DNA of 64,000 nucleotides from an uncultured Acidobacteriaceae bacterium (lineage in GTDB: Bacteria; Acidobacteriota; Terriglobia; Bryobacterales; Bryobacteraceae): positions 17,007 to 81,006 of the forward strand of contig CAVSTJ010000002.1 in assembly GCA_963730795.1 (NCBI GenBank), read 5' to 3'. Within the stretch, counting starts at the first letter, position 1. The number at the start of each line of letters is the position of its first letter. The position numbers and the translations under genes were made by a program. Below, one piece after another: positions 18,349 to 47,600 of the stretch. The notes under the pieces were generated by a model that saw only the letters and a program-made list of their open reading frames with translations, did not search any database and was not told the origin of the DNA.

Positions 18349-18352
18349 AGTC

Positions 18353-26652: not shown

Positions 26653-27928
26653 TCACATCCGTGCCGCGTTCGCTACACTCTGCTGAATTATCTCCACGGC
26701 ACTTAGGACTCCGCTCTCCTGACCTATGCGCCTGCCAAGCTCAGCAGCGCGGCCGCGCATCTCCTTATTCGAAGTTGCCTGAACCGCTTCGGTCAAGGAA
26801 TTCTCGGTCAATTGTTTGGCAGGAATCGGACGTGGACCAGCGCCAAGATCATATACTCGACTTGCCCAGAAAGGTTGGTCCGCAAACACGGGCACAACGG
26901 CGGCAGGCAACCCGGCGCGTAATGCCGCTCCCGTTACGCCGGCTCCCCCATGATGAACCGCTGCACAGACACGGGAGAAAAGCCAGGCGTGCGGCACCGA
27001 GTTCAAACTGATAACGTCATCACTAAGCCTTCCCGTGGATAGTCCGCTCCCGCCTGCCAGAATTACTCCGCGCTTATGTGCACGTTCGAGAGCTCGAACC
27101 ACCAACCGGGTAGATACTTCGGGCTGCGGAAAAGGTGTACTGCCGAAACCGACGAAGACCGGGGGTGGACCGGATTCGAGAAAATCGACCAATTCTGCCG
27201 GCGGTACCCAATCTGAACCATCGTTCAAGAACCAATAACCGGTAACATGAATCCACTCATTCCAGTCAGGTGGTCGCGGTACAACCGCAGCGCTATAGGC
27301 GTCGAGGATAGGAAGGCGCCTCCGGTCCAAGACCTTAAAGGGTTCCATCAGCGGCAAAGGATGCAACCCGAGTACAGTTGTGCGTGCCGCATTTGTGTTC
27401 CGCCGAAGCATGCTCCACATCACCGTCCGGAACACGGCATGTTGGAACGCAGTCCACTCTCCTCTCAAGAGTGGTTGCTACATTCTTTTTTCCAGCCCAA
27501 TCATATTGCGTCCGCGCGAACGGGCTGGTCTGAACCCGTATCAAAGGGACATTGAGCCGTTCGGCAATGTGAACGCCTAAAAGAATACCCATTCCCGAGA
27601 CGACGATCGCTTCCACGTCGCTGCAATCGCGCCAATACGTAGCCATTCCCTCTTCGATAAGGGATCCGGCAAGGCGCACAAAACCTTTCAGAAAACCCGC
27701 GGCGGTGGTTCGGCCGCGGACCCACTCGCGTCCCGCATCGGTGTTCGCCATGTCGAGCGGTCTGCCGCCAATTGAAAGGTGATGGAGTCCGTACGGCTGA
27801 ACGAGATCCTCAAAGCCACCGAGCGTGACGATCCGCACCCGGTGACCCGCGTCCCGCAGACCAATGCACAGGGCGATGTAGGGTTGAACATCGCCCCTGG
27901 AGCCGATAGCTAAGACATCGATACGCAT
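26653..27928 (-). pseudogene. GT1 (GT28-N / sterol-glucosyltransferase-like UDP-glycosyltransferase), frame-disrupted
   Basis: The N-terminal half (MRIDVLAIGSRGDVQPYIALCIGLRDAGHRV...) is in ORF 27335..27928. The C-terminal half (HVTGYWF...VFVGFGS...HHGGAGVTGAALRAGLPAAVVPVFADQPFW) is in ORF 26653..27468. The frames switch near 27455-27480. The total span is 1 mod 3. Confidence 0.75.
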
Positions 27929-27946
27929 GCGCGTCGAGTGGCTTTA

Positions 27947-30113
27947 CTACGGCTGGCTTCCCGTACAGAACTCACTCGAAGTTACCTGTTGGGGAAATTG
28001 AGTGTAGAGCTGGAGCCGTCTTACGAGCTTGCTGTATAGAACATCGGCGTCGGTTGATTCGGGATCCTGGAGTGAAGGGGTACTGAGTTGCTTTACCGCT
28101 CCGTTGATCTGGCAGGCTGCCGCCTGCTGCTGTGCAGCGACAAGTTTCTGCGTAGCACCGGCCGAGCCGCTACTTGAGGTAAATCGTCCCCGCGCAGTCC
28201 AGACTTGTACTTGGTCCAGCAGTTGGCTGAACGTCACTGGGGGGGTGTTCATGGGGAAAGCCACTAAATTGGAAGGATCCGACGGTGCGCTGTTCTTTTT
28301 CTCTGCGGTGACATAGTACATGTATTTCTGCCCGGCTTGGGCCGTTGAGTCGAAGAAAATGGTGGTACTTACATCTGCGATATCGGTCCATGGACCCACG
28401 CACTGATCGGGGATCTTGTTCCCGTACTGCAGATTCCAGCCTTCAACACTCACGTTGTCTCGCACTAGGCAGAGACTTAGCTGGGCACGCCAGACGTGGT
28501 AGATCTTCGCGCCGCCCACGCTGTTCCATGAGAGAAGTGGGTTGCCATTTTTTGCCGGTTCCATCTCCAGACGACCCGGAGGGTCCGGTGCCGACGATCC
28601 TCGAGTATTGGCCTGAAAAATCATAAGCCCGTAGTAATCGTTCACCGAGCCAACAAACATACCGTGAGGGGTGTAAGCCATAGAACGGAAGCCGTAGTCG
28701 AACTTACCCCCCAATGGATCGCCCTTGTCTGTAAAGCCATTCAGAGTCATCGGACTGAAATACCACGCGTCCTGCGTGCGGTAAAGCTGTGCTCCCATGT
28801 TTGCCGCCAACAGTGGTCCGTAATTACTATCGAATCGCGCTGCTGTGCTCGCGTTGTATGTTCCGATATACAGATACCTGAATGGGTCGTCCATTTGCCA
28901 CGCATGATCGTTCAGAGTAAGACCGAACCCGGCCTCAAGGCCGCTGCTGGGATACTTCATCGCGGAAGAGCCGTTCGCAGCAGGCACGGATCGGGGCGCC
29001 CCGACCACCAAATCCCATGTGTCGTCAGGGTTGATTCGAACGATTTCCGTAAATGTTGCCGTCCCAACGTACAACTGCCCTCCGTATACATGCATGCTCA
29101 CGACAGACTTGCTCGCGGTAGCGGGACTCAATCCTCCACCAGCGGGCACCACGGTGATGAACTGGTACGGCGGTGATCCCTCGGCCTTCGTCTTGACTAC
29201 TGAGTAGCCGCCGACAGGATCAAAGCCGCCCAGGTATAACCATCCATTAAAAACCTCAAGCTCATAGTAAATGGGGTTTGCGTCGCCTGCTAGAAACCAT
29301 GAATTGTCGCCCTGCGACGGGTTGGCTGAGGCGATCAGCGAGCCCTGGCCGAAAGCTGGCCCGCACAGGGCAAACAGCTTTCCGTTGTAGGAAGTCGCCG
29401 CGCGAAAACTGGAATGATCGGAGTTGAACGGAAGATCTCCCAGGAACGTTCCAGGCGTTTGTGGTAAGGGCGAGAAGTTGATGCCGTCAGTGCTGCGTAG
29501 GATGCGGGGAGGCGGCAGCTTTGTTCGATCATAGATGATGGTGGTATTCACGCCGAACGCGTACAAAGCCTGCGTGCCATCTGGTTCCGTGTAAGTTGTG
29601 AAATCCCGAATAGCCATCTCGTACGGGAGTTTCTTTCCTGGGCGAGGCGGAAAAGCAGGAACACCGGCTCCGGGATTATCGAGCGCGAGAGGCGACTGAA
29701 ATACTCGTTGCCAGCCGCCGCTCTGAGTCCAGCGCCAGATCTCAGCCTGAAGGCTTAGATCCGCTGGGTCGGGAGCACACGAAAGATCCGGGTCAGTAGG
29801 TGGGTAGGGCAAATAGGTATTCGCCAGACTGGCGCTGACGTTGATACTTACGTATTGCCAGACCGCATCCCAACTGCTACAAAGCGACTGCCGGCTCGTA
29901 CCGACGTATAGCGCATTGTTCCACCAGATCATGGCTTGCGGCCAACTGTTGTTTCGGTCTCCGAAGCCGCGAGGTGCGGCCTCCATAAAAGTTACTTGCG
30001 GTTATGGGTCGTGTGCTGTTTTGCGCCCTTGTAAGGGACGCGCCGAGCGTGAGGGACACGGTTATCAGTCCAGCGGCGATGAGGGCTGCTCGTTGGTGCT
30101 GTGTTTTGTTCAT
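27947..30113 (-). pseudogene. secreted beta-propeller-like + FN3-like domain protein, signal peptide separated by a frameshift
   Basis: ORF 29877..30113 begins with a clean Sec signal (MNKTQHQRAALIAAGLITVSLTLGASLTRAQ). It abuts the 679-aa ORF 27947..29986 in the adjacent frame, with the switch near 29986-30005. An FN3-like segment (KIYHVWRA...YMYYVTAE) lies near the C-terminus. The span is 1 mod 3. Alternatively the 679-aa ORF is a stand-alone CDS. Confidence 0.55.
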
Positions 30114-30241
30114 GAATACAACTACGTCCTATTCTTGGGATTACTTTTACTTCAGGCAAACGCGGGACTTGTGTGTCTGAGGCGCGATTCTCGCGGCCGC
30201 AGCGCTCTGGCAAAACCAGACAATGTATTTGGGAGACCGGA

Positions 30242-31580
30242 TTACAATACCAGACTGGTTGAGGCCTCTTCCATCGCTCGGGGCGATTTCACGGCGAGGG
30301 ACTCCAGCAACTCAGCAGCGTGTGCCGGGCCCGGCGCCTGCGCCAATTTCTCAGCGATGCGTCGGGCATTCGCTCGAAAATGAGGCTCTTTGAGCAATCT
30401 CATAACAGCAGCACGGACGCGATCCGGTGTACACTTCCGGGGCGCAAGCCGAATTCCAACGCCGGCTTCTACAACGCGCTGAGCATTATCACTCTTTTCC
30501 CAGAATGTCGGGACCATCAATAGCGGCACACCAGCCTTCAGCGCAGCCATAACGGTGGCTGGCCCTCCGGTGGTTACCACGACGGCACAATGGGGCAGCA
30601 AATCCTCATGGCTGAGCCACCGTTCGACTCGCACGTTTGTTGGAAGAGGATCGAGGCCCAACGTTTTAGGATCCCTTGACTGGCCCGTTGTCAGGATTAC
30701 TTCGACCGCCTCATTCGCCAGTCCTGCTGCGGTCGCACGCAACAAGAACGGTTCTTGATACTGCGCCGTACCTTCTGTTGCGTGAACCCATGGCCGCGTC
30801 TTTGTAAGCTCGTTCAGCCACTGTGGCTGGGGTGCTCCCCCAGGTCTGGTCCATACGCATGGACCGACATAATGCACGTTCGACGGTTGATCGTGACGTT
30901 CGTAATCGAGTTCCGGAATGCTCGGGATGAGGTATAGCGGCAAGCGCCCGCTGAAGGCGTTGATCGAACCACCCATAGGCTTCAAACCGTATCGGGCCCT
31001 GATCCGATTGACTTGCTGGCGCATGCGGTAAGCGATTACGTCGATGGCTAACTCGGTTGCGCGCGCAAGCAGCCTCGTTCTGAAGTTCCGGGGCGGTGGG
31101 AGTCCGGGACCCCAGGGTGGCGCATCCGGTCCCGGAATCAGAGAGCCCATCATCGTCGACGAAAGGGCAACCGGTAAACCGGTAAGCTCCCAAATAACCA
31201 ATATGGAACCCCACATTGCAGGATCCGTAACCAAAGCCTCAGGTTGCCATTCCTCGAGGATCGGCTTCAGGTCTGTCGACCTGCTCCGGAATGGAGTCAG
31301 CGAGCATGTCGCGATAGGCCCGCATCGCAACGGAGAGAGTTTGACGTTTCGGTTGAGTAGCCGGTACTTTGGCTTCAAGCGCGTGGATACGCTCGTAGCG
31401 CTGGTCGTCAACATGAATGAATGGGAACAGCTTGAAGCCTTCTCCTTCGACCACTGGACGCGTGGATTCGTGGCTGTAGAAGGCAACATCGTGACCGCGA
31501 TCGCGCAGCGCGTGCGCGATGCTGATCTGGGGATATAGGTGTCCAACGAACGGCCAACACGTGACAAGGAAACGCGCCAT
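30242..31580 (-). pseudogene. GT1 MGT-family UDP-glycosyltransferase, frame-disrupted
   Basis: The N-terminus MARFLVTCWPFVGHLYPQISIAHALRDRGHDV is in ORF 31239..31580. The remainder (DLKPILEEWQPEALVTDPAMWG...TTGGPATVMAALKAGVPLLMVP) is in ORF 30242..31567. The switch is at about 31265-31285 (GTCGACAGACCTG). The span is 1 mod 3. Confidence 0.8.
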
Positions 31581-32960
31581 TAGTCGCTACCTCCCTGGCC
31601 CATCGTTAACGGCACTAATGATGGATTCATTTGTGAGAGACGAACACTGCCGCCTGCTGCGGTGGCGCTTAGGTTTTCCAGCATCTTGGCAGCCCTGCTC
31701 GGACCCTCGTATTCGGTGAATGAGCGGGCAAGGCGCTGGGCGTTCCGGCGAAACGATGGCTCGTTCAGCACGCGTTCGACAGCAGCCCTAAGCCGCTGCG
31801 GCGTACATCGCGTTGGCGTAATGCGAAGGCCGGCCCCGGCCTCAACCACTCGTTGCGCGTTTTCCGGTCTGTCCCACTCGGTTGGCACAATGACCAGAGG
31901 GATACCGGCTTTGAGAGCCGCAAGCACGCCACCCGACCCGCCCAGAGTCACCATTACGGCAGTTTTAGGCAACAAATCGCTCTGCGGCACATACGACTCG
32001 ACACGCACATTCGGATAAACCGGGCCTAGATTCAGCGCCGCGGGATCCCGCTGTTTTCCCGTTGTCATAACGACCTCAAAGGGTCCATCTCCGAATGCAC
32101 GCAACGCCGCTTTCAGCAAGAAAGGTTCCTGCGTTCCAATGGTCGCCTCCGTGACGTAAATCAAGGGCTTGTCCGGGGCAAGCTGCGCGATCCATTCGGC
32201 TGGCCCTATCTGATTAGGCTTATCCCAGAGGCACGGACCCACATATTGAACAGAATGAGGCAAATCGCGGCGCTGATAATCGTACTCCGGCGTGCTCGGG
32301 ACAAGATAGAGCGGCATCTGGCCGGCGTACTCCGTAACAGAACAGCTCACGGGCGGCAAACCGTACCGCTTGCGAATGATATTCACCTGCGCTCTGAACC
32401 CAGTCGAGAGCCACGACACGACCATGAATTTCAGTCTTGACTGCAAACGCATGAGCGGCGTTGCGTGGTTTGGGCAAACCCTGACCCCAGAATGGGGCAT
32501 CCCGTCCTGGCAGAATGCAAGCAGCAAGAATTGACATAACGGCAACAGGAATCTGCCTGGCCTCGTGAAGCACGATGATGGGCCCCCAAAACGCCGGGTC
32601 GCAGATCAACACCTCCGGGCGCCACTCCTCGAGCAAGAGGTCGAGATCCTGAATCTGATCTGGAACGGTATCGAGCAGCCACTCGCGAAATCTCGTCTGG
32701 AGCTTGCGTGCGCGCTTCAACTGTTTAAGGAGCGAAGGCGAATAAGCAAAGTCGTCGGACGATGCGAGTTCCCGAACTCTCTCCTCATCGACTCGTTTGA
32801 AGGGAAAAAACGCAAACCCTTCGCCCTCGATCACACTGCGCACCGATGAACCACTATAGAAACCGGCCTCGTGACCGCGCGCCTGAAGCGCATGAGCCAA
32901 GGCGATCGCCGGATTGACGTGACCCGGGAAAGGCCACACTGCAAACAGAAATTTAGCCAT
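31580..32960 (-). pseudogene. GT1 MGT-family UDP-glycosyltransferase (paralog of 30242..31580), frame-disrupted
   Basis: The N-terminus MAKFLFAVWPFPGHVNPAIALAHALQARGHEA...GQGLPKPRN is in ORF 32220..32960. The remainder (RLQSRLKF...RKRYGLPP...TLGGSGGVLAALKAGIPLVIVP) is in ORF 31580..32545. The switch is at about 32450-32475. The span is 1 mod 3. TAATG stop/start overlap with the next GT1. Confidence 0.8.
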
Positions 32961-32988
32961 TCCTTCGTCTACGTACCTTCGGTTCGGA

Positions 32989-33927
32989 TCAGTCTCTCAG
33001 CGCAGGTTTAGCGCTGAGTGGCGGAGCGCTCTGAGTTGCACGGCGGATCACGGTGCGGAAGTAGATCCGTTCGAACAAATCTCCCGGCAACCACCTTCGG
33101 AGAGCCACGGCAAGTTTCGCCTTCCGGCCGACCATGTAGCGGAGGTTCGGATTCTTAGCAGTTAAAGCACCATAGACGACCGCCGCAACATCGCCGGGCG
33201 TCGCGGTAGATGCCTGAACTAATTTGTCCGACTCCTGTTCAGATCGAGAGAACCACGCCGCATAGGGGCTATTCGGATCACCTGCCCGCGCAGCAAGACC
33301 ACGGTTGATTGTCCAGCGCTCCGTCTTGATAATGCCTGGTTCAACCAGGACAACGTTGATTCCCAACGGTGCCAACTCCATGAAGAGTGACTCGCCAAAA
33401 CCCTCCACCGCAAACTTGGTAGAACAGTAGGCGCTCACACCCAGTGAGCCGATCCGACCTCCTACCGAACTCATCAGAATGATCCGGCCGTTCCTCGCCT
33501 TTCGCATATGAGGGAGCACCGCCCGGGTTACTTCCATCACTCCGAAAAGGTTTGCCTCAAACAAACGGCGGATCTCATCGTAATCCAAATCCTCGAAGTA
33601 GCCGCGCAAGCCCACACCGGCATTGTTGATGACACCGTAGATTGCACCAGCCTCGGCGACGATCGAGTCAACGACTGCACGGATGCTGTCTCGATCGGTG
33701 ACGTCGAGTGACATTACCCTGAGATCCACGCCTCGATCTCTGGCAGCACTGAGCAGGCTTTCGGATCCGCCCATGTCCCGGACCGTCGCATACACCTTGA
33801 ATCCGCGTTCGGCGAGATACAAGGCCATCTCTTTTCCGAGCCCAGTCGAAGCTCCGGTGATGAGGATGGCCGCGCCCTTCATTGTTTCTCTCATTTGCTG
33901 ATTTCCGAGCCTACTGTCCTTGATCAC
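32989..33927 (-). CDS. SDR family oxidoreductase
   Basis: ILITGASTGLGKEMALYLAERG (TGxxxGxG), NNAG and YCSTKFAVEG (YxxxK). GTGA overlap with the upstream hydrolase gene. Confidence 0.85.
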   Translation of the reverse strand: MIKDSRLGNQQMRETMKGAAILITGASTGLGKEMALYLAERGFKVYATVRDMGGSESLLSAARDRGVDLRVMSLDVTDRDSIRAVVDSIVAEAGAIYGVINNAGVGLRGYFEDLDYDEIRRLFEANLFGVMEVTRAVLPHMRKARNGRIILMSSVGGRIGSLGVSAYCSTKFAVEGFGESLFMELAPLGINVVLVEPGIIKTERWTINRGLAARAGDPNSPYAAWFSRSEQESDKLVQASTATPGDVAAVVYGALTAKNPNLRYMVGRKAKLAVALRRWLPGDLFERIYFRTVIRRATQSAPPLSAKPALRD

Positions 33928-34787: not shown

Positions 34788-34801
34788 CTAAGAATTTCTC
34801 C

Positions 34802-36411
34802 TCATTCCACATATCCGAGTGCACGTAAGTGCTGCATCACTTCCGCAGCAACGTTGGCATCAATAGCTGGCGCTTCTTCTGAACTACTATCCGAACCAGC
34901 TTGCGTAGACGCTCCGAAGCGCACTGGATGCGATTGCAGGTATCCAGGCTCAAACAGTTCGCCCGGCACGCGGCCTTCGAAATCGATCGGAATCGGGATT
35001 TCCAATGAGTGAAGGAGCAGCGGTGCAACATCGAGGATGGAAAGCGACGGCACGGAGGCACCCCGCCGTATTCCAGGGCCTGAAGCCGCAAACACGCCTT
35101 GCGGACGATGCGCGCCACTCAATTCTTTGCGGGGCCTCAGAGAGGACTTCGGAAGGCAGAATTGACACTAGGCCGCCATCCCTGAGCATCAACGTCAAAT
35201 CCGGGGCTGCTCGCATCTGATCACCGGCAAACGCTTCCTCTCGCGTCCAGATCTGAGACACGACTTTTCTTCCGGTCACGGGATCGAGCGAATTCGAGCA
35301 AGCGGTCCTTCAATTCACGCCGGAAGCCTTCATAGTCAGCGGCAGCCACTCCTTTTCCCTTGGCTGTCCGCGGTACGATGTAGATCCCGTTGCTGCTCGG
35401 AGTCGGGCAATAGGCGGTGGTTCTGTCCCAATCGATTTGATAGAACCGCTTTGCCATCGTCCCGATACCAAGAGTCTCTGCGTGTTTCTGGTCAACGGTG
35501 GCGTTATCAGTCCAGGCTAAATACCCGTGTTGGTGAAGCCAGGCATTCAAATAGAAGACTTCTTCCGTTGGCCCGAAGCCGTGATCGGAAGCGACAACCA
35601 CGCTCGCCTCTGGTCCGCCGGTCGCGACGATCTCCCCGATAAACTGGTCAATCTCGCGGAAGTATTCCAGGCACAACTGACGAGCCCGAAGCTCCCAGAC
35701 GGACGGTGAAGATGGAAACAAGCTTGAGTCCAGAAAACGCCAGCAAACATGCTGCAGCTTATCCACTCCGTCAAACAGGACTGCCGTCAAATCGCATGGG
35801 TCCGTTTGCATCAGGTAGCGAAGCACATTGAACCATTGCCGCTCTCTGCGAGTATGTAAGATAATCCAACTTTCGTAGTCTTCCTCGCGTGTACAGCCCT
35901 CAAGCGCTCTCTCTTCGAGCGCCATATCCATGGCCATTTCTTTCGCATTGAAGCCAGGAAGAGCCGAAAGCTGTTCGTACAGGGACTTGGGATAACACGC
36001 GAGCCGAAGATGGCGCCACGGCACCCAGCCGGGAACGACACTGCCTAGGATTTTCGGGGCCGGGAAGGTAGACGGGAAATTCAGCACCGTGGCCGTTCGC
36101 TCGTGCCGCGTGAGGATGGACCAGATCGTTTCAGAAGCGACGTCTTCGGAACTCACTACTCGAAGCTGATGCCCGTCTGAACAAAATTGAAAGCGTAAGA
36201 AGTCGAAGATGCCATGATTCCCGGGACTGCGGCCGGTCATGAGCGATGTCCAGGCGGGTGGAGTAAGCGGGGGAATCACCGAGGCGAGTTCCGCACGCGT
36301 ACCGGACGCGAACAACTTCTTCAGTGAGGGCATGACGCCCGCTTCGATGAGCGGGTCAAGGACCGAGAACGTAGCTCCGTCCAGGCCGATGAGAAATGTA
36401 CGCCTGGTCAT
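34802..36411 (-). pseudogene. alkaline-phosphatase-superfamily phosphodiesterase/nucleotide pyrophosphatase, two frame disruptions
   Basis: The N-terminus FLIGLDGATFSVL...PPLTPPAWTSLMTGRSPGNHGIFDF is in ORF 35221..36411. The middle (VTGRKVVSQIWTREEAFAGDQ...) is in ORF 34950..35279. The C-terminus (SGAHRPQGVFAASGPGIRRG...ILDVAPLLLHSLEIPIP) is in ORF 34802..35122. The switches are near 35275-35300 and 35105-35135. The span is 2 mod 3. Confidence 0.75.
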
Positions 36412-36713
36412 CGGGCAACCCCTGCAGCCGCCCCATTCAAGTGGCTGTGAACAAATCCGACAAGTTCACCTATAGTTAGGTCCTTGACATCTCTCCGACC
36501 TATATCTGCGAGCAATTGCGGAAACGGCATGGGGCGGCCATAATGCTCCTGCACAAACGAGGCCAGCACCACAGTGTCAATGGACTCAAACCCTAAATCG
36601 GCGAACAGTAGCGTATCGGGCGTTATCTCTCCCGAGTACTCCCAATCCCGGGACAATTGGCTGAGTAGGTTGACCACGTCGGTCATGACTGTCGGTTGAT
36701 CAACTGCGCTCAT
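36408..36713 (-). CDS. acyl carrier protein (PP-binding)
   Basis: LFADLGFESIDTVVLASFVQEHYG, with Ser at the DSL position. The start ATG 36713 (MSAVDQ...) has AGAGGA 5 nt upstream. ATGA overlap with the downstream gene. The track ORF extends to 36860. Confidence 0.7.
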   Translation of the reverse strand: MSAVDQPTVMTDVVNLLSQLSRDWEYSGEITPDTLLFADLGFESIDTVVLASFVQEHYGRPMPFPQLLADIGRRDVKDLTIGELVGFVHSHLNGAAAGVAR

Positions 36714-37998
36714 CAGTTCCTCTTTCATAAAATGATGTTGCGAAGACGTATTCCCCTTCCCGCGCTGTGTAGGTAACGAGTTCACTCTGCAAAGCTTGGG
36801 GAACTTCGGCGGCGAGTTTCCCGGAAGGAGCGGCTCGAACAATGCCCGTCTTTGCGTCAACCGAGATTATTCGTACGCTACTCGGTCCTTCGAGAAGTCC
36901 GCGACCAAGAGCTTTTGCAACAGCCTCTTTCGTACACCACAGCCTTAGTACCCATTCAGGCCGGTTTGATTCGGAGATGTTTGCAAGAAGTAGCCGCTCG
37001 TCAGAGGTAAACGCAACATTGACAAAGCTTGACGCGAGTTCGCGTATAGCTTGGATATCAATGCCGAAGGAGCCGCTGTTTCCATTGCCGGCGACAGCGA
37101 CGGCAGTTCCGTTGGAATGCGTCAGAGACAAACCCGGAGCAGTTCGCAACCGTTTCAGCCACGATCCTTGGGCAAACGGCTTGCCATGCTCGTCCTGAAC
37201 GATCTCAATATCTGCAGGCAACAACTCTAGTCCGTAATGCCGCTTTAGCAGCGAGCGAATTGCATCCTTGGCGGCAGTCCTGCCACTCAACCACTCCAAG
37301 CGTCGTTTTTCAGGACTCTGCCGTTGCGAAAAGAATTTTCTTTCCTCTCGCGAGAGTACGAGAGAAGCCCACAGGTCCGTCCAGAGGCCGTCGCCAGGTT
37401 CGAACAGGCTTTCAACCCGATAACACTCGAGGCTATCCCTGGCCGGTATGCCACGAAGCGGCGTCTCCCAGGACTCGCTAATCAGCGCTTCACCGGGAGC
37501 AATCCAGGCGTGGTGAAATCGCTTCGGCGGATCGAAGCGGCGATCTTCCCACCCGCGGACTTCCATCCATAATGATCCATCACTCCCCAGGACTTCGATG
37601 GTTGAGCGAATGCGCTCATTGCCGATCATCTGCAGCTTCAACCGGCAACTGAGTTGTTCTCCGGCGGGGCGATTGGGTCCGTAAATGCGAAGAGTTTCCA
37701 GCCGGTACGGAAACACGACAAAGCCCGATTCCAGGTACTCAGCGGCCCAGAAGCCTACAAGTTGACCCGCAGCGTCGAGCGCGACGGGATCGGTAACGAA
37801 GGATGGCTCGGGGTTCGACCTGAAGAGATTATTGGTTGGCAGTATTCTCAGATGGGCGGATACGCCGTCTTGGCCCGAGCGATCTACGCTCGCCACTCCC
37901 TGGAAGCAAGGACCATGAAACATCAATCGCCCGTCGTATAGATCGGCGGAGGCCAGGCTTGAAACCCGTTCGGCCGCGAGCGAAAACGGAGCGCGCAA
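36700..37998 (-). CDS. C-terminal half of a PKS dehydratase domain fused to an Sfp-type 4'-phosphopantetheinyl transferase (probably the 3' part of the upstream PKS gene)
   Basis: LYDGRLMFHGPCFQGV and DPVALDAAGQL parallel the second half of the DH domain of the 2901-aa synthase. PPTase motifs FGIDIQAI and LWCTKEAVAKALG are present. The ORF has no plausible independent start (the track start is TTG inside the DH domain). Confidence 0.7.
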   Translation of the reverse strand: MRAPFSLAAERVSSLASADLYDGRLMFHGPCFQGVASVDRSGQDGVSAHLRILPTNNLFRSNPEPSFVTDPVALDAAGQLVGFWAAEYLESGFVVFPYRLETLRIYGPNRPAGEQLSCRLKLQMIGNERIRSTIEVLGSDGSLWMEVRGWEDRRFDPPKRFHHAWIAPGEALISESWETPLRGIPARDSLECYRVESLFEPGDGLWTDLWASLVLSREERKFFSQRQSPEKRRLEWLSGRTAAKDAIRSLLKRHYGLELLPADIEIVQDEHGKPFAQGSWLKRLRTAPGLSLTHSNGTAVAVAGNGNSGSFGIDIQAIRELASSFVNVAFTSDERLLLANISESNRPEWVLRLWCTKEAVAKALGRGLLEGPSSVRIISVDAKTGIVRAAPSGKLAAEVPQALQSELVTYTAREGEYVFATSFYERGTDERS

Positions 37999-40900
37999 CC
38001 GGAGGCTTCGGATACCCGTCGGCGAAAATCATGATTCCCCGAACCGCCGGCGTGTTGACAGTGCTCTTTTCCCCGGTTGACGGGGCGACGTCACGAATCT
38101 GAACCTCGACTTCGTCATTTGACGTGGCGAGTCTTCTGGCTGAGATCTGGAGTTCGGAGGACGCCTCATCTACTCTTATCCAGTGATGGGCCTGAACGTC
38201 ACGCATGCCAATAAGCACTTTGCCCGGCATTAACGCAGAAGCCGCTTCCGCGAGCAGTTCCATGCTCATTGTCAGAGGCAGGACGATCATGGGACGCAGC
38301 GTCGGATCCATTGTCGACACCGGTCCGCCTAAGGCGTGTTCGCGGAGGAAAAGATCATCCTCCAGGTTGAGATGACGAACGGCCGTCAGCTCCTGGCCCG
38401 GCGATAGCGAGGTGATGGCTCCGAGTAGCGGGAAGACGGCTCCAGCAGATTGCCTCGACATCGTACCGGCTTTACTACTTCCGGCAGCTCGGGCGACACC
38501 AAGGAAACTCGCCATCATCTGCTGTTCCACGTTGAGGAACTTCTCCATCCCTTTCATGTACTCTTCCATCACCAACGTCGTCCCGTTTGCGGAGGCACGG
38601 GGACGGATAGGTTGTGGACGGGTTGCAGCCGGCAACGGGATTTCAATCTTTCGGCTAGGGCCGGCATGGGAATCGCCGTTGTGCGGAACGGCCGCAGTGC
38701 TCGGCTTCGAGCTTTGAGGCGCGGCTGGCGGCCGGGGCGCCACTTTGAGCGGAGGCAACGAAAGGACCACCTTCATTGCCGGCGAAACACTCTTTGCTGG
38801 CGGTTTCGGATTTTCGAAGGACACCGGGCTCGGATCGCGACGGGCGTAGAGATAGTCGAGACGCATCCCTATCCCTTGGGCGGCCAGAATACTAACCAGA
38901 TGATTGATTTGTGTTATGCCCGAGCGGCGCGCGATGTTGGCCGGCATCGCAAGATGAGGCTTGCTGCGGAGAATGTCGCCCACGAACGCGGTCAGGTTGC
39001 CGCGCGGCCCTACTTCAACAAAGGTCCGCACTCCGTCCGCGTACATGGTCTCGATCGTCTTGCCGAACAATACGGGGAGCACCCAATGCGCTATATACAA
39101 CTCCCGGATCTCATCTCCGCTATTCGGATAGAGGGCTGCTGTGGTACAGGAATACGTTTCGATCTGAGGTGCGGAAATTCGAAGACGTGAAAAAAACTCA
39201 CGAGCGGCACCTTCTGCGTAAGCCCGGAACATCGGCGTGTGATATGGCCGGTCGAATGGCAGGACTTCATAAATGAGCCCGCGTTGCTGAACGTATTTTA
39301 TTGCCTGCTCGATCTGGTCTTTGCTACCGACGAGAACACTCTGATGAGGGCAGTTGTCCATCGCGAGATAAAGTTCCCCGCCGAGAGCATCGATCATGGA
39401 GCTGACGGTTGCGGAATCAGCCGCAATGGCCAGCAAAGCAGCTTCAGGTACAGAGGTTTCTTTTTCGACCCGAACATGTGCCTGATTCAGTTCCAGGATT
39501 GTTTCGAGATAGGTGGCGTCGCTCGTCAGCTCGATGATATTTGCAGCAAGCATTGCCGAGTAGTCGCCGGTGCTATGTCCAACAATTGCGTCGGGGCGTA
39601 TCTCGAGTCGCCGCAACAGTGTCCAAAGGGCTAGGTTGCCGATGAGGACGCTGCCGACAGCACCCTCTATACCCCAGATCCGTTTCTGTACCTCCGAGAG
39701 CTCAATGTCGGACAAGAGCGAACGAGGAAAGATAAACTCGCTGGGCCAGCATTCGGGTGACTGGTGGCTAAGAGCGCGATCTGCTAGCTCGAAGCACCGT
39801 CTCACCTCCGGGAAATGAAGACAGAGGTCAAGCAACATGTTGGGGTATTGAGCGCCTTCACCCGGGAAAAGGAAGGCGAGCTTGCCCTTGAGCGGCTCAT
39901 CGAAGAAATAGATACCCCGGTTGTCCTTGATCTGCCGACATTTGGGGTCGGCAAGACGGTCTAGGGCATGTGCGAGCTTCGCGTCCAGATCCTGTTTGGA
40001 TTCAGCGACGATCGCAAGACGAGAAGACCGGCCTTCCAGTTCTTTGCTGAGCGTATATGCGACGTCCTTGAGGACGACCTTACTAGCCTCCTTCAGGTAG
40101 TCCCGAAGTCGGTTGCCTTCATCAATCAATCCTTGTCGTGATGAAGCTTCGAGAATGATAGCTTCCGTATCCCATTCGAGAAGGTAACTGTGGTCCTCTG
40201 TTTCACCGGAATACTCCTCGAGCACCGCGTGACCGTTGATTCCGCCAAAACCAAATGAATTCACGCCGGCCCGGCGCGGCGTTTCAGCTCCGTGGAACCA
40301 TGGCCGCACTTCGGTGTTGACGTAGAACGGCGTCTTTTCAAGTTGCAGAGCGGGATTCGGCTTCTCGCAATTCAGAGTGGGCGGCAACACACGGTGGTAG
40401 AGAGCGAGTGCCGTTTTGATCACTCCGGCGATACCCGCGGCTGGCATTGTGTGTCCGATCATGGACTTGACGGAGCCGATCGCACAGCTCGGCAATAAGC
40501 CATGCCGCTCCCCGAAGACCCGGTGTAGCGCCTGCAGCTCCGTCACATCACCCACCGGAGTAGCCGTGCCGTGTGCCTCGATCAAGCCGACGCTCGCAGG
40601 CGAAACATCGGCCATCTCGTAGGCGCGGCGCAACGCAAGCTCCTCGCCTTCGATACGTGGGGCCATGACGTGCAGCGCGCGGCCGTCGCTGGCAATACCG
40701 ACGCCCTTGATCAAGGCATAGATTCGATCGCCGTCCCGCTCGGCGTCCTTTCGCCGCTTTAGGACAACCATTCCTAGGCCTTCGCCAAGAATGGTGCCAT
40801 CTGCGTCCTTGTCAAAGGGTCGAATACGTTCCTGCCGGGATAAGGCGCCCAATTGACAAAAGAGACTCAAGGTTGGGAGTGGCGCGTTAACGTTTGCTCC

Positions 40901-41638
40901 TCCCGCGAGTACCAAGTCGCACTTACCGGTTAGTAGGTCGCGAACGCCTATATCTAAGGCAACCAGTGCGGACGCGCAAGCTGCGTCTACGGTAAAACTC
41001 GGTCCCATCAGATCGAGCCGATTGGCAATGCGACCGGCGATGATGTTGCCTATCAGCGCGGGCGCCGTATCCGCATTGAACGGAGGCAATCCGCCTTTCA
41101 ATTCCTGCTTGATCTGGTTGACTTCCGCCTCGCTGTACTCGGGATGAAGGTTCCGAAGCACCTGGAGCAATTGCTCTACCACCATCCCGTGATAGCCGAC
41201 CGTCAGATTGCCACGGTTAACGTAGGTGCCCTTCCCGAGGATGACCTCGGCGCGCAGATGTTCTTTGGGGGACTCCCGGTACCCTGCATCCGCGAGCGCC
41301 TGAAACGCGACTCGCACCGCCAGCCACTGGTCTGGTTCTCCGCCGTCCACCGTGACCGGCATGACGCCAAAATCCGCGGGGCGGAATTCGGCTAAATCAT
41401 TGATGTATCCGCCGCGCTTACAATAAACGCGGTCGTTCGACTTGGACGATGGATCGTAGAATACGTTCACATCCCAGGCATCTGAGGACGGGTCAGAGAT
41501 GGAATCTACCTTCGAAACGATGTTGCGCCAATAACTGTAGAGATCGGGTGCGCCCGCAAAGAGGCAGCTCATCCCGACGATGGCCACATCGCCTTTAAGC
41601 TGAGGTAGTTCCTTTTCTGCCTCGGTGCTGACCTTCAT
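37829..41638 (-). CDS. type I PKS, KS-AT-linker-DH(N-terminal half); reading frame breaks at about 37985-38025
   Basis: Start ATG 41638 (MKVSTEAE...) forms an ATGA overlap with the upstream stop. KS motifs: DAACASALVALD (Cys codon 40976-40978), EAHGTATPVGD, GHTMPAAG. AT motifs: FLFPGEGAQY, VGHSTGDY (Ser codon 39572-39574). DH motif: LREHALGGP...LPLTMSMELLAEAA. The last ~50 codons are Arg-rich out-of-frame sequence. Confidence 0.85.
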   Translation of the reverse strand: MKVSTEAEKELPQLKGDVAIVGMSCLFAGAPDLYSYWRNIVSKVDSISDPSSDAWDVNVFYDPSSKSNDRVYCKRGGYINDLAEFRPADFGVMPVTVDGGEPDQWLAVRVAFQALADAGYRESPKEHLRAEVILGKGTYVNRGNLTVGYHGMVVEQLLQVLRNLHPEYSEAEVNQIKQELKGGLPPFNADTAPALIGNIIAGRIANRLDLMGPSFTVDAACASALVALDIGVRDLLTGKCDLVLAGGANVNAPLPTLSLFCQLGALSRQERIRPFDKDADGTILGEGLGMVVLKRRKDAERDGDRIYALIKGVGIASDGRALHVMAPRIEGEELALRRAYEMADVSPASVGLIEAHGTATPVGDVTELQALHRVFGERHGLLPSCAIGSVKSMIGHTMPAAGIAGVIKTALALYHRVLPPTLNCEKPNPALQLEKTPFYVNTEVRPWFHGAETPRRAGVNSFGFGGINGHAVLEEYSGETEDHSYLLEWDTEAIILEASSRQGLIDEGNRLRDYLKEASKVVLKDVAYTLSKELEGRSSRLAIVAESKQDLDAKLAHALDRLADPKCRQIKDNRGIYFFDEPLKGKLAFLFPGEGAQYPNMLLDLCLHFPEVRRCFELADRALSHQSPECWPSEFIFPRSLLSDIELSEVQKRIWGIEGAVGSVLIGNLALWTLLRRLEIRPDAIVGHSTGDYSAMLAANIIELTSDATYLETILELNQAHVRVEKETSVPEAALLAIAADSATVSSMIDALGGELYLAMDNCPHQSVLVGSKDQIEQAIKYVQQRGLIYEVLPFDRPYHTPMFRAYAEGAAREFFSRLRISAPQIETYSCTTAALYPNSGDEIRELYIAHWVLPVLFGKTIETMYADGVRTFVEVGPRGNLTAFVGDILRSKPHLAMPANIARRSGITQINHLVSILAAQGIGMRLDYLYARRDPSPVSFENPKPPAKSVSPAMKVVLSLPPLKVAPRPPAAPQSSKPSTAAVPHNGDSHAGPSRKIEIPLPAATRPQPIRPRASANGTTLVMEEYMKGMEKFLNVEQQMMASFLGVARAAGSSKAGTMSRQSAGAVFPLLGAITSLSPGQELTAVRHLNLEDDLFLREHALGGPVSTMDPTLRPMIVLPLTMSMELLAEAASALMPGKVLIGMRDVQAHHWIRVDEASSELQISARRLATSNDEVEVQIRDVAPSTGEKSTVNTPAVRGIMIFADGYPKPPVARSVFARGRTGFKPGLRRSIRRAIDVSWSLLPGSGERRSLGPRRRIRPSENTANQ

Positions 41639-44600
41639 GAGCCAAGCCCGACAGCAGCGGTCATCGACTTTCTCGCAAGGCGGTTTAACGCTGTGCTGCA
41701 CGCGCCCTGCATGTCGTCCAGAACAGCAAAGACACGTCGGGTTGCTGCGTCGATGAAGAAAATGTCGGCATGTATCGTCTGGGAACCAGTGTTCGGCCGA
41801 ATTCTCATTTCGCACAACACCGGCCCGCTGGATGGCTCGCCGAAGCGTGAATAGCTCTGGAAGCCGGAGGGTAACGCGGTCATGTCCCAGTGTTCCCGCG
41901 CCCAGACAACAAGCAATTGCAAAGCGCTATCGAACATAAGGGGATCGATCAGCCATGGGCGCTTGGGATCTCCTGCCACAAGGTCAGACGGCCGCGACCT
42001 TGCCAGCAGGGCTGTGATTCCACTCGGTCCAATACTCTCGATCCTGCTAATTCCCTGCAGCAATGGGCCGTGAAATAACCACTGATTGTAGAAGTCTTCG
42101 CGTGTCAAGCGGAATGCACCGCCATCCGAGAGCAGAACCGGCTCACGAGGTGGCGTTTGAGGCAACCCCTGTGCAAGTTCGACAGTCGCCCGGTAATGCA
42201 CTCGATACGGCTGTTCGGCGCTCACCAACTCCACAGCTACGCTCGTTTTGTTCGGCTCGCTTACCGACTGCGATTTCGAGACGATTCGAATGTTCCCGTG
42301 TTCTTTATCGAGGACGATTCCCTTTAAAAGCTGCAGGTCGCGGATCGACGTGAACTGCAACTCAGGCCAGTTCTGCGCCACCACTTCGGCCATCAGCTCA
42401 GACGCGACAGCTAGTGGCAGAACAGGGCGTCCGTCAATTCGGTGGTCGTCCAGGTAACGGTCGTGAACTGGGTCCAACTCGCAGACGAATTCCCGAGTGC
42501 CATTAACCCCCGATGAGCTGATCCGCGGGAGGAGAGGCCAATCGCCGAAAGACTCCGCATGTTGCTTGACAGGACTCCATCCGGCTCCTCCAATGACGAC
42601 CTCGGCTTCGCCCCGATGTCCAAAATTCAACTCGTCTTCGAGCATCTGGAGCCCGACCTCCGGAGGAATCAACTCGACGCCGCGTTCGACGAATTGCCGG
42701 CGAACTTCTTCCGAGACCATGCCCGGGCTATCCCAGGGTCCCCAATTCATTGCCACCACGCGCCCCGGCCAACTGCGGTCAAGAGATACCGCGAGCTTGT
42801 TCAGCACTTCGTTCGCCGCCGCATAGTCTCCCTGCCCGCGGTTGCCGAATCGCCCCGCTACAGACGTAAAGAACACGAGAAACTGGAGACTCTCCGAATG
42901 AAGCTTGCGCGTCAGAGTGAAGGCGCTGTTGACCTTGGTATCGAAGACGCGATCGAACGATTCGACGGTTTTGTCTTGCACGAGCTTGTCTTCAATGACA
43001 CCCGCGGCATGGATTACGCCATCCAACCGGCCGAAGCGTTCGTAGATGCTGTCGATGACCGAGGCGAATGCCTCGGCATCGCGTACGTCAACGGTCTCGT
43101 AGTGCACCGCTCCGCCGAGCTTTCGAAGCTCCTTCAGATTCTGACGAATTTCGCGTTCACTCATGAGCCGCGCATAGGCCTGTTCGACACGCGCCGGTGT
43201 CACCTGGTCCCCGCCCCGGCGCATGGATTCCATGAGCGCAGCTTTCAGTTCTTTGGGTGAACTTAGTTGAGATGTTTCCGCGGACTCCTGTGCCTCGGGC
43301 ATAGGGGTCCGGCCTATCAGCACGATCGTGGACCCGTAACGTTCTGCGATCCGATGCGCCGCGCGCGCCCCGATTCCACGCGCACCGCCCGTTACGAGAA
43401 CTACCGAAGAGCTATCGATGGCGAGCGCAGGTTTTCCCTTCCTCTCTGGAGCGGTGAGATTCAGATCCAGACAAAGACGACGAGCGCCTTGATACCCGAT
43501 TTCCGTGTGGCCTTCTTCCGCGACGTTCATTTCGCCCAAGAGATGGTCAGCGAGATCTTGTCCGTTCTCCTCCGGGTTGAGATCGACGACCCGGATCCTC
43601 ACTTCCGGCCATTCGATGGCGAGCGTTTTCGTAAGTCCAGCAATGCCGCCGTGATCCGGGTACGAAACCGGAGAGTCGGGAGACAAGCCAGTCATGAAAG
43701 CGCCGCCCATCCCTGTCGCCGCAATCAGAGATGCTCCTTTGTTTTGCCCGGCCTCCCGCAGTTGCTTGCCTGCTGCCTTTGCGAGATAGAACAGGCTCTT
43801 CGTGCCTACCATTAGCTTTTGGCTACTGTCTTCGAGGGCCAGATTTCGAGGAGATGGTCTATTCGCCAACGGGTAGAGATGAACGATAGCGCCGATCGCC
43901 CCCTGGCGTTCATTCACGAGAGAAATGAGCTGGTTGACCGCTTCCGGCGAACCTAAATCAGCTTCGTAAAATCCGCTCGCCCGCTCTTGAACTCGTTCGC
44001 CCATAGCTACTGTGACGACATGGTGTCCACGGCGGTGCAACTCCTCGCCCAAGGCGGTCGCGATACCGCGCCCGTCATCGGTAATCAGGACGGTTCGGTC
44101 CTTCGCCACGGGCTGCAGGGCACCAGCTAGCGGCCTCTCAACGGCAGCCAATGTGAAACGTCCGATGTTCGCCGTTTCTCGCTTATGGTCGTTCGAAGTT
44201 GAAACGCCTGCCGTCGCTCTGAAGTGCTCATCCGATTTGTCGGCAGTCGCCGGCTCACTGTCGCCGGACACCGGCTTTTTCTGAGCAACTTGCAAGACAC
44301 AATCGATGATGCCGCGCAAGGTATGCATTCCCGCGAGTTGCTCGATCATTCCCTCGTGGGTTGCTTGTCCGAGTTCGAAGAGTGCTTGCTGGAAGTTGCC
44401 CAATATCTCGACTCGCTTGATGGAGTCGATTCCGAGGTCCGCCTCCATGTCCGCATCTACGTCCAGCATCTCGGGCGGATATCCGGTCCGATCGCTCACT
44501 GTAGCGAGCAATCGTGCGGTCAACTGTTCCCTGCTCGGGGCGCCAGCTTTAGGAACACTCATCTCCGCAGAGGACACAGAAGTGGGCGCTTCCGCGCCAA

Positions 44601-47600
44601 TCTGCTCCGCAACTCGATCGATGACGCCTTGCAAGGTCCTAATACCAGAAAGCCCTTCCATCAAGCCTTCTCCGGCATTGATACCCATCTCTGCGAAGGA
44701 CTGTTGGAAAGTTCCCAAAATTTCGACTCGTTTGATCGAGTCGATGCCTAAATCAGCCTCCAAGTCGAGTTGGAGATCCAGCATCTCCGGCGGGTAACCG
44801 GTCCTATCGCTCACAATGGTCAACAATCGCTTGGTGAGCTCGGTCGCGGGGTCCGTCTTGCCAGCCGACTTCTCAGATGGAAGTGGACCCGGAGTTGACT
44901 TAAGGGCGTGCGCCGCAACGGGCGCGGCAGAAACGGCGATTTCGGGTTGCGTGACAGGTTGAGGAATGAGGGGCTCGGCCGCTACAAAGTGTTGCAACGC
45001 GAAGAGATCGCGGGTCGGCTCAGCCTGAGGCCGAGGGGCGAGCTCGCGCAGCGCAGGCTCGAGGGTAGAGGGAGTTGACTGGCCCTCCAGGTAATTGATC
45101 ATGACGGTTTGTTGGACATCCAGAAAACGCGTCATTATCTGCTGGAAGTGCACCACCACGTGCGAGACGTTATCCAGGGAGCGAGTGACCGCAGGTGCTG
45201 GTTCGTGAGAACCATTGAGAACTACCGGTGAGGGTTGGACAGGAGGCGGCGAAGGCGGTGCTGCCCCCTGATGGGATGCTGCCGCAGAACCGTTAACCGG
45301 TGCGGGAATGGGCGGCACGCTCAGCCCCGCTGTACTCTCTTTCGGGTGTTTTGAAGAATCCATTTTTTGAGAACCGTTCGCGCGGCCGTTGCGGCCCGCT
45401 ACTTCCTTCAGCGGCTTGGCGCGCGCGCCATTGACCAACCATACGGATGGGGATAATTGCTTTTCGTTGTCCTGCCCGAGCGCGCCGAGATCCAGACGCC
45501 GGCTCGACCGGCCGCGATATAAACGATCGAGCTTTACGCTCACGCCTTGCGCAGCAAGCTGTGCAAGCAGGTGGAGGACTTGCGTTAGACCTGGCCTCCC
45601 GCTCTGGTTTGATGCCACTGCGAGCTTCGGACGGTCTCCCAGAATCTTGTCCACCAAGCCTGTTAGAACGCCACGCGGGCCCGCCTCTACAAAGATCCGC
45701 GCGCCTGCGTCATACATGGATTCGATTTCGCGCGCAAACTCTACTGGCCGGACCAGGTGTTCTAGAAGCCTCGTCACAATTGCATCGGGCTCTGTTGGAT
45801 AAGGCTCTGCCGTGGTATTCGAATAGACCGGAATAGTAGGTGTTCCTACCTTCACACCCGAAAGGAACTGAGCCAAGCCCTGCTGCGCGCCCGAAACGGT
45901 CGGCGAGTGGAAGGCACATGCCACAGGGATTCTGCGCACGGACGTGCCTCTCGCGCCAAACTGCTTGAGAGCTTCTTCCACGCCGGCCTTCGTCCCGGAT
46001 ATAACTATCTGGCGAGGGGCGTTCGCGTTCGCGATGCACACCCCCTGGATGCCATCAACAACAGCCGCCACTGTTACGGCATCAGCTTCGATCGCCGCCA
46101 TTACGCCCGGCTCTCCGCCAGCCGCGTCAACGATAAAGCGACCCCGTGCCTCCGAAATCGCAATGAGTGTTTCGGGACTAAACGCTCCGGCCGCAGCTAA
46201 GGCCACATACTCTCCGTAGCTGTGACCGGCAACCATGTCCGGTTTGAGACCTAATTCTCCTAGCAAGCCAGACATAGCCAGACCGGCGGCTCCTAGCGCT
46301 GGTTGTGCGATGTGCGTTTCTGTCAGCGCACATTGACGATTGTCTGCTTCCTGAGTGTTGAAACTGGGAGGCGGAAAAACGTAGGAACTCAACGGCTTTT
46401 CCAGCCGTTCGCCGAGGGCGGCGTTGGCGCTTTCAAATACTTCCTGCATCTCCGGGAAATAAATGAGAAGATCCTGCAACATGTGCGGGTATTGCGAACC
46501 TTGCCCGGGAAATAGGAATGCTACCTTTCCTTGTGAACCCAGCGGTTCTTGGGAAAAGTAAATCCCACGGGGATCGCTGATTCGGGCAACTTCGGACTGC
46601 ACGAGGCTCTTCCGGGCCGAAGCCAGTTTTTGCTTAAGATCATCGACCGAACTCGCGACGATCGCGAGCTGCAGGGCAGACTTGCGAGCTCCAGCAGATA
46701 ACTCTTCGGCCTGCTTCCACGCTGTGAAGGCCAGATCCCGCAAGATCGGCGCCGTCGGTACACGAAGTGCCTCATCCCAGGTCTCAACCGTTTGAAGTAG
46801 GGCCTGCCGGTTCTCGGCTCGCCACACGAAAAGCTCATCTGACCACTGCCGGGTCCGGGTTGGTTGAGCCGAAGCTGGCGTGCCCGTGTATTCCTCGACT
46901 ACCACGTGAAAATTCGTACCGCCGAAACCGAATGCGCTTACGCCCGCGCGGCGCGGATTCTGGGCAAGCCCGTTCAGCCAGGCTTGCGCTTCCGTATTAA
47001 CGAAGAACGGCGTCTCAGGAAAGCGCGCACGAGGATTCGGCTTCTCAACACCTAACGTCGGCGGCAGCACCTTATGGTGAAGTGCCAGCGCAGCCTTGAC
47101 CAGGCCAACGGCACCGGCACTGCATTTCGTATGCCCGACCATTGACTTGACAGAGCCGATGGCGCAGCTCTGAAGGGGAGCTCGAGCGTCGGAGAACACT
47201 TGTGTGAGCGCCTGGACTTCCGCGCCATCCCCCGCCACGGTACCCGTTCCGTGAGCTTCAATCAGTCCCACCGTCGCGGGTGACAGTCCAGCCTTGGCGT
47301 ACGCGCGATTCAGAGCGCGTGCCTGACCCTCAGGGCGGGGCGCCGTCAGCCCGCGGTCTTTTCCATCGCTTGAGCTTCCAGCGCCTTTGATGACTGCGTA
47401 GATGCGGTCGCCGTCCCGCTCTGCATCCGCCAATCGCTTGAACACCATCATTGCGATGCCTTCGCTGATGGCAATTCCATCTGCGCTCTCATCGAACGTG
47501 CGGCACCGGCCGCGAGGCGAGAGCGCGTGGGTTTTGCTGAAGCAAAGGTATGTGAACGGATTTTGCATGGTGTCGATTCCGCCCACAATCACCATGTCGC

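Follow-up and report, generated by a model that had tools for sequence, protein, structure and literature searches.

In a 64-kb stretch of contig CAVSTJ010000002.1 from an uncultured bacterium of the Bryobacteraceae (the window, with positions counted from its first letter), a minus-strand operon starts at about 51.2 kb and ends at about 26.6 kb. The second of its two large synthases has the domains ketosynthase (KS), acyltransferase (AT), dehydratase (DH) and phosphopantetheinyl transferase (PPTase) and is split in the deposited sequence into two open reading frames (ORFs) by a frame break within the DH domain. In the living organism this second synthase is most likely a single KS-AT-DH-PPTase protein of 1645 amino acids (aa). 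It belongs to a widespread, already catalogued family of lipid synthases that are similar to the synthases of polyunsaturated fatty acids (PUFA) and have a PPTase domain of their own. We propose, with a probability of roughly 0.72, that the protein is the intact, self-priming second subunit of a two-protein, pfa-like iterative lipid synthase and that the frame break is an assembly error. The second synthase has the following parts:

37829..41638, minus strand: upstream ORF, 1269 aa, with KS at residues 17-425, AT at 589-893 and PKS_DH_N at 1070-1181 (Pfam)
36700..37998, minus strand: downstream ORF, 432 aa, with PS-DH at residues 20-156 and 4PPT_N and ACPS at 226-388 (Pfam)
37994..41638, minus strand: part in frame -1, with KS, AT, a Pro/Ala-rich linker and the N-terminal hotdog half of the DH
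41590..40364, minus strand: KS (Pfam)
39874..38960, minus strand: AT (Pfam)
from about 38443, minus strand: N-terminal hotdog half of the DH, catalytic His in REHALGG
37991..37996, minus strand: frame break, where a GCGCGC run has one base too many, at the linker that joins the two hotdog halves of the DH
37531..37992, minus strand, frame -2: C-terminal hotdog half of the DH, from LYDGRLMFHGPCFQGV to LDAAGQ, with the catalytic Asp and Gln (Pfam PS-DH)
36703..37440, minus strand: Sfp-type PPTase domain of about 245 aa in two lobes, with GIDIQ and WCTKEAVAK; stop codon at 36700-36702

The domain order given in the original prediction was confirmed by Pfam and by AlphaFold2 (AF2) models compared with known structures by Foldseek, and the motifs quoted there (LREHALGGP, LPLTMSMELL, LYDGRLMFHGPCFQGV, FGIDIQAI and WCTKEAVAKALG) are all present. 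Active-site residues were compared across 54 full-length sequences, the window protein included. The KS contains the Cys-His-His triad of an elongating KS, by which it differs from a chain length factor (CLF), in the form of Cys221 (DAACAS), His356 and His396, which are invariant in all 54. Equally invariant are the active-site Ser689 of the AT in GHSTG, which conforms to GHSxG (Pfam Acyl_transf_1 with 57.7 bits versus a cutoff of 32.7), and, in the DH, His1101 (REHALGG), Pro1121 and Asp1288 and Gln1292 (LDAAGQ). The DH thus has the residues of a double-hotdog dehydratase of the polyketide synthase (PKS) type, with the His in the first half and the Asp of DxxxQ in the second. The AF2 model of the repaired DH-PPTase (pLDDT 90.4, pTM 0.89) was matched by Foldseek to the dehydratases of CurF, CurK, PksJ and PpsC across both hotdog halves over about 310-325 columns, with target-normalised TM scores versus CurF, PksJ and CurK of 0.72-0.81. 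In the repaired 1645-aa protein Pfam found neither a PP-binding nor a ketoreductase (KR) match, and a sequence search of the PDB with the KS-AT part returned generic type I PKSs alone, with no specific affinity.

The PPTase domain scores at the cutoff of NCBIfam TIGR00556, contains Pfam ACPS and 4PPT_N and is linked by phmmer to Sfp (1qr0/4mrt). The C-terminal 246 residues of the protein, modelled alone, reached a pLDDT of 91.8. The top Foldseek matches, which cover the whole two-lobed fold, were Sfp, MuPPT, PptT and PptAb (4mrt, 4qjl, 8gkf, 7b4r), with 233-254 aligned columns and target-normalised TM scores of 0.71-0.78; chains of the AcpS type cover only half of the model. The domain has the pseudo-dimeric, two-lobed fold of about 230 residues in one chain that is typical of Sfp-type (group II) PPTases, and its WCTKEAVAK contains the complete motif W/F-x-x-K-E-A-x-x-K with the Glu and both Lys.

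In a tblastn search with the protein of the syntenic locus L001, the match in frame -1 ends at 37994 and that in frame -2 starts at 37992; this places a single surplus base inside GTTGCGCGCTCC, which includes a (GC)3 run at 37996-37991. Deletion of any single base from 37988 to 37999 yields one ORF of 1645 aa, where about 1646 had been predicted. The position of the junction in the AF2 model is the linker that joins the two hotdog halves, so that the frameshift lies inside the DH domain, as had been claimed. Once repaired, the junction (GYPKPPVAAPFSLAAER) gives a gap-free alignment of 50 columns with those of L003 and L004, the two closest relatives. A deletion of two bases in the (GC)n run was considered instead of an insertion of one base and rejected, since the ungapped alignment after removal of one base makes one extra base more parsimonious than two missing ones. 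The final approximately 55 residues of the 1269-aa ORF (RSVFARGRTGFKPG...) are low-complexity, out-of-frame junk.

The reconstructed DH-PPTase used as query returned 65 proteins, nearly all of which span the junction with a coverage of 89-99%. Judged by its best matches, the region belongs to an acidobacterium of the Bryobacterales type. In the closest relative, locus L003 of a Bryobacterales metagenome-assembled genome (MAG), residues 4-1639 are matched in one high-scoring segment pair (HSP) with 68% identity inside a 1698-aa ORF. A single ORF is also found in L004 and in the isolates Paludisphaera soli (L059), Micromonospora sonchi (L054), Sulfitobacter (on a plasmid, L078) and Rhodovulum adriaticum (L082). 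In the relatives DH and PPTase always share one reading frame, with no separate stop and start between them, and the region after 37998 is a genuine C-terminal half of a DH (Pfam, AF2 and Foldseek); on both points the original prediction stands.

A pattern scan over one genome per GTDB species gave at least 482 confirmed relatives, cultured strains included, from Acidobacteriota, Chloroflexota, Planctomycetota, Actinomycetota, Nitrospirota, Cyanobacteriota, Pseudomonadota and other phyla. When 1.84 billion representatives of protein clusters at 50% identity were searched with a profile, 1,823 matched at E ≤ 1e-30, and in all of the best 150 of these the DH-PPTase didomain is C-terminal. The opinion that the architecture is uncommon can therefore not be upheld, the less so as it is already in the literature (PMC3098273, PMC13291983). 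The full-length proteins fall into two size classes, KS-AT-DH-PPTase of about 1590-1700 aa, to which the window protein belongs, and KS-AT-ACP-DH-PPTase of about 1790-1990 aa with an acyl carrier protein (ACP) domain; a discrete downstream ACP is usually kept in both.

For L001 the public gene call (L001 9880-10001) gives a KS-AT protein of 1043 aa and a DH-PPTase protein of 606 aa with a TGATG overlap. That L001 could be a natural two-gene version was considered and rejected. What looks like a boundary between AT and DH is a frame break in the Pro-rich linker: before the ATG the DH frame already encodes conserved linker, namely PDPVRAPASKHASTQV, which is homologous to the in-frame PQPIRPRASANGTTLV of the window.

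The other genes of the operon, in which enoyl reductase is abbreviated ER and short-chain dehydrogenase/reductase SDR, are:

41635..50340, minus strand: first synthase, 2901 aa, ER(NMO; PfaD/FabK-like)-KS-AT-ACP-ACP-KR-DH, a fused pfaD-pfaA homologue
36408..36713, minus strand: discrete ACP, 101 aa, Ser in LGFESI (Pfam PP-binding), 72% identical to the ACP of L001
34805..36411, minus strand: phosphodiesterase/nucleotide pyrophosphatase of the alkaline phosphatase superfamily, broken twice (at about 35286-35289 and at 35141), intact with 535 aa in L001
33924..34787, minus strand: alpha/beta hydrolase (Pfam Abhydrolase_1), possibly for chain release
32989..33927, minus strand: SDR/KR-type reductase (Pfam adh_short and KR)
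31643..32960, minus strand: first GT1 glycosyltransferase, one extra base near 32449-32457
30287..31580, minus strand: second GT1 glycosyltransferase, one extra base at about 31274-31277
27947..29986, minus strand: conserved 679-aa protein, without a Pfam or NCBIfam family
26653..27928, minus strand: third GT1 glycosyltransferase, N-terminal half in frame -1, C-terminal half (ORF 26653..27468) in frame -2, break at about 27400-27470
50647..51240, minus strand: NusG paralogue (UpxY/LoaP/RfaH-like antiterminator; Pfam NusG; NCBIfam UpxY with 104.8 bits versus a cutoff of 100)

In the 2901-aa protein Pfam recognised NMO, ketoacyl-synt, Acyl_transf_1, two PP-binding domains, KR, PKS_DH_N and PS-DH. 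With 1360.6 bits versus a cutoff of 1010.1 the protein is a member of the PfaA family (NCBIfam TIGR02813); the KS-AT-DH protein remains below this cutoff with 611 bits and is therefore not itself a PfaA. The TGA stop codon of the first synthase overlaps the ATG of the second at 41638 (ATGA), and the ACP gene, which has an ATG start with a GAGGA Shine-Dalgarno sequence 6-7 nucleotides upstream, begins before the PPTase stop codon (36700-36702) with an overlap of 14 nucleotides, in agreement with the predicted coupling at 36700-36713; its own stop overlaps the start of the next gene. Two discrete ACPs had been assumed; a motif scan of the window found one, besides the two tandem ACPs of the 2901-aa protein.

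Conservation of the operon was counted over 47 loci with full flanks, on the same strand. A PfaA-like gene is present in 43-45 of them, a discrete ACP downstream of the synthase in 38, the phosphodiesterase directly after the ACP in 41, the alpha/beta hydrolase in 39, the homologue of the 679-aa protein in 29, an SDR in 27 and a GT1 in 22. The 679-aa protein is an uncharacterised conserved component of the cluster. The locus L003 is itself frame-broken, in a glycosyltransferase and in a 722-aa homologue of the 679-aa protein. The NusG paralogue lies directly upstream of the 20-kb synthase operon and is similar to regulators of the LoaP and RfaH types, which act on long biosynthetic operons.

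We propose that the 1645-aa protein works together with the 2901-aa ER-KS-AT-ACP-ACP-KR-DH protein and the discrete 101-aa ACP. Its PPTase domain would take phosphopantetheine from CoA and attach it to the ACPs of the same system, by which the synthase would prime itself, and its KS, AT and DH would help to extend and dehydrate the chain. Taken together, the two synthases and the ACP contain two KS-AT pairs, one KR, two DHs, one ER, two tandem ACPs and one free ACP, a complement that should suffice for the iterative synthesis of a long, partly reduced chain. Release and decoration of this chain could be the task of the phosphodiesterase, the alpha/beta hydrolase, the SDR, the three GT1 enzymes and a nearby sulfotransferase and APS kinase. 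A glycolipid is the probable product. A lipid that is glycosylated and possibly sulfated is suggested by the hydrolase, the SDR, the three GT1 enzymes, the sulfotransferase (25980..26651) and the APS kinase (54197..54742). Next to the ACP, the phosphodiesterase might also act on an intermediate that is linked through phosphopantetheine or phosphate, either by releasing it or by a transfer on it.

Is the split a property of the gene or of the sequence? Comparison with L001 and with the closest MAG (L003) revealed five further frame breaks, two in the phosphodiesterase gene (at about 35286-35289 and at 35141) and one in each of the GT1 genes (at about 32449-32457, 31274-31277 and 27400-27470). 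All six breaks lie within 27.4-38.0 kb, a stretch of 10.6 kb, and all six have the same direction (-1 to -2, -2 to -3 or -3 to -1), each corresponding to a single surplus base; wherever the site could be pinned down, removal of one base restores the length of the relatives (L001). No break was found in the 12.3 kb of synthase sequence directly upstream, which tblastn matched in single HSPs of 2286 and 996 residues, and about 27 other genes of the window showed none either, judged by near-complete coverage of their Pfam profiles and by tight gene junctions, so that about 48 kb of other coding sequence that could be judged is free of them. The chance that six random points in about 59 kb of assessable sequence fall within 10.6 kb is, by our arithmetic, p ~1e-3. 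The cluster of breaks begins inside a gene and therefore tracks a physical segment of the DNA rather than a functional unit.

Among relatives with enough upstream sequence, a single ORF of at least 1450 aa is present in 46 of 50 short-read or isolate loci versus 7 of 16 long-read-type loci (Fisher p = 1.4e-4), the latter class comprising those with MFD 'contig_N' names and two ENA contigs. The MFD MAGs are Flye assemblies from Nanopore reads only, with one round of Medaka polishing (PMC12313526).

We therefore consider it likely that the break at about 37993 is of technical origin, a one-base insertion error of the consensus or assembly, and 27400-38000 is probably a poorly supported segment of the consensus. 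The view of the split as a feature of the gene finds no support, since it is one of six same-direction, one-base breaks within 10.6 kb, which is the pattern of consensus errors. Two observations speak against this explanation. Five of the six breaks lie outside homopolymers, the classic context of Nanopore errors, and the breaks are limited to one segment of one operon, as would also be seen in local gene decay. The pentamer CGCTC, which occurs at three of the six breaks (37993, 35290 and 32457, minus strand), was considered as a shared error motif; this was not upheld, since CGCTC occurs at 24 sites of the stretch and 21 of these are unbroken. The coincidence at three sites has a p of about 0.02 when the post-hoc choice of the motif is allowed for.

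The competing explanation that fares best, although we regard it as unlikely, is that the frame breaks are real mutations and that the distal operon (DH-PPTase, phosphodiesterase and the three glycosyltransferases) consists of recent pseudogenes, the pathway being dead in this strain or population. The extra bases do stand in the deposited sequence, from which the public gene call of the contig is a fragment of 338 aa (P0004); the breaks are confined to one functional unit and mostly outside homopolymers, and two of them lie in short dinucleotide repeats, (GC)3 and (CT)3, which are prone to replication slippage. Natural gene decay produces mixed insertions and deletions, usually with a bias toward deletions, whereas here the sign is the same in six of six. 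Substitutions normally outnumber insertions and deletions, yet the approximately 1,460 codons of the corrected frames downstream of the breaks contain no stop codon. Nor is the identity to L001 lower after the DH break (60.0%) than before it (57.8%), and the catalytic residues downstream of the break are all intact. That the cluster starts within a gene and spares the 12.3 kb upstream is better explained by a physical stretch of poor consensus, and breakage of the same kind is met in relatives from long-read assemblies.

Somewhat less probable again, and directed not at the break but at self-priming, is the view that the PPTase domain survives as a structural remnant without catalytic activity, the ACPs being primed by a PPTase encoded elsewhere. 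In the FGIDIQ motif of the window the Asp is kept and Gln replaces the Glu of GxDxE, the second metal (Mg) ligand. This Glu is present in 38 of the 54 full-length relatives; GIDIQ or GIDVQ is found in the window and its closest relatives. In 13 of the 54 even the catalytic Asp of GxD is lost (e.g., GIGIE, GVHVH and GMQIG; variation in the motif was seen in P0008, P0011 and P0033), and Pfam ACPS was not detected in some members of the family (P0013, P0015 and P0033). It follows that activity of the PPTase is not guaranteed, which weighs against self-priming; judged from these motifs, the domain may be weakened, or may be dead in some lineages. In the window, however, the Asp, the Glu of W-x-x-K-E-A and both Lys are present, the predicted fold (pLDDT 91.8) matches those of active Sfp-type enzymes, the domain is kept in 1,823 representative clusters, and a search that was not exhaustive saw no second PPTase gene in the 64 kb.

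It is very improbable that the split is functional, be it with a DH of two reassembling polypeptides as in heterodimeric hotdog dehydratases or with +1 recoding by ribosome or polymerase: the break does lie exactly at the linker between the hotdog halves, three of six breaks are on CGCTC and all six need the identical +1 correction, but the TTG at 37998 is not preceded by a Shine-Dalgarno sequence (upstream sequence GAAGCCTCCGG), the zero frame continues for about 55 codons with neither a stop nor a slippery motif at the site, the orthologues pass the site in frame and without gaps, and the CGCTC coincidence has the p of about 0.02 given above. A programmed +1 frameshift is expected at a conserved break in a slippery or hungry-codon context; the DH break is not conserved in the orthologues and has no slippery motif. 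Just as improbable is the wider version in which all six +1 breaks are real and are read through by ribosomal +1 frameshifting, transcript editing or slippage; were it true, expression of the lipid pathway would be gated by the efficiency of frameshifting.

In 2011 Shulse and Allen described twenty types of pfa-like "secondary lipid synthase" clusters with PPTase domains inside or adjacent to them and placed Renibacterium salmoninarum ATCC 33209 under their Type M (PMC3098273). A fused pfaDA together with a pfaBC homologue that has a PPTase domain was described in Aquimarina sp. TRL1 and Flavobacterium sp. N502540 and likened to the uncharacterised cluster of R. salmoninarum (PMC13291983). In these clusters as in the window the first gene encodes an ER fused to KS-AT-ACPn-KR(-DH) and the second a protein with KS, AT and DH that ends in a PPTase; judged by the published description, the window has the Renibacterium/Aquimarina arrangement of an ER fused to a PfaA homologue and a second protein with AT, DH and C-terminal PPTase. 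It differs from them in that its second protein has a KS with an active site, no CLF, and one double-hotdog DH of the PKS type rather than FabA-like pairs, and in its context of glycosyltransferases rather than of non-ribosomal peptide synthetases and PKSs. The Renibacterium, Aquimarina and Flavobacterium examples are absent from the 80 best loci of either genome scan. The second scan, seeded with actinobacterial members, returned other taxa only, with no Renibacterium, Frankia or Streptomyces avermitilis (Type M), and the link to Type M therefore comes from the published description and not from sequence.

With the canonical PUFA synthase PfaABCDE of Shewanella and Moritella the system shares the iterative type I mode, the tandem ACPs and the PfaD-type ER. 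Canonically, the PPTase (PfaE) and the ER (PfaD) are proteins of their own, and PfaC has the order KS-CLF-DH2 (PMC3098273), whereas in the window ER and PPTase are fused into the two synthases. The second synthase is also not a canonical PfaC with a KS-CLF pair and tandem FabA-like DH domains, since its single KS has the active Cys, a further KS-like domain is absent and its one DH is of the PKS type.

The enediyne PKSE, with the order KS-AT-ACP-KR-DH-PPTase, is a type I PKS that works iteratively and primes the ACP it contains. It has the same DH-PPTase ending, and the sister subtype in the family of the window protein is KS-AT-ACP-DH-PPTase. The window protein itself lacks ACP and KR and is thus not a PKSE on a single polypeptide; no enediyne accessory genes were seen, and in the PDB matches KS-AT was no closer to enediyne entries than to generic PKSs.

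The PPTase domain shares with Sfp, PptT and PptAb the two-lobed fold over about 235-250 aligned positions and the motifs GxD and W-x-x-K-E-A, and differs from them in being the C-terminal domain of a megasynthase and in having Gln for the second acidic metal ligand. PPTase domains integrated in bacterial PKSs and in fungal fatty acid synthase (FAS) are textbook knowledge, and the C-terminal PPT domain of the alpha-subunit of fungal type I FAS, which activates the ACP of its own synthase, is an AcpS-like domain of about 140 aa (PMC3909215). The fungal synthase and that of the window both have an integrated PPTase; the domain in the window has about 245 aa and is of the Sfp type. A literature search found no paper that assigns a product to the operon, nothing relevant in full texts under names such as DH-PPTase or KS-AT-DH-PPT, and nothing relevant that links PfaA-like genes to nucleotide pyrophosphatase and glycosyltransferases.

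The operon is flanked by the following genes:

25980..26651: sulfotransferase
24648..25670: FabH-like KS III
23272..24696: PapA-like acyltransferase with a condensation domain
22443..23210: SDR
54197..54742: APS kinase

This flanking set is reminiscent of the pathways to acylated sulfoglycolipids. Between 52742 and 54197 (about 1.5 kb) there are only short overlapping ORFs without a Pfam match; the region is non-coding, or contains a gene too broken or too novel to be recognised. A separate, apparently intact polysaccharide locus at 654-19408 encodes a flippase, an initiating sugar transferase, GT4 and GT2 enzymes, a Wzy-like polymerase and a Wza-like exporter, together with a B12-radical SAM protein and a GDP-mannose 4,6-dehydratase.

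For the single gene the significance of the finding is small, the architecture being widespread and catalogued and the split being probably an assembly error. However, gene calls of this contig and of similar long-read MAGs fragment the genes of large synthases, and domain surveys will therefore miscount "split" or "stand-alone DH-PPTase" proteins. The core of the operon, consisting of the pfaDA-like gene, KS-AT-DH-PPTase, ACP, the phosphodiesterase of the alkaline phosphatase superfamily and the alpha/beta hydrolase, with or without reductase and glycosyltransferases, is conserved across the seven phyla named above, from Acidobacteriota to Pseudomonadota, cultured strains included, and a self-priming lipid synthase of this kind would be a convenient target for heterologous expression.

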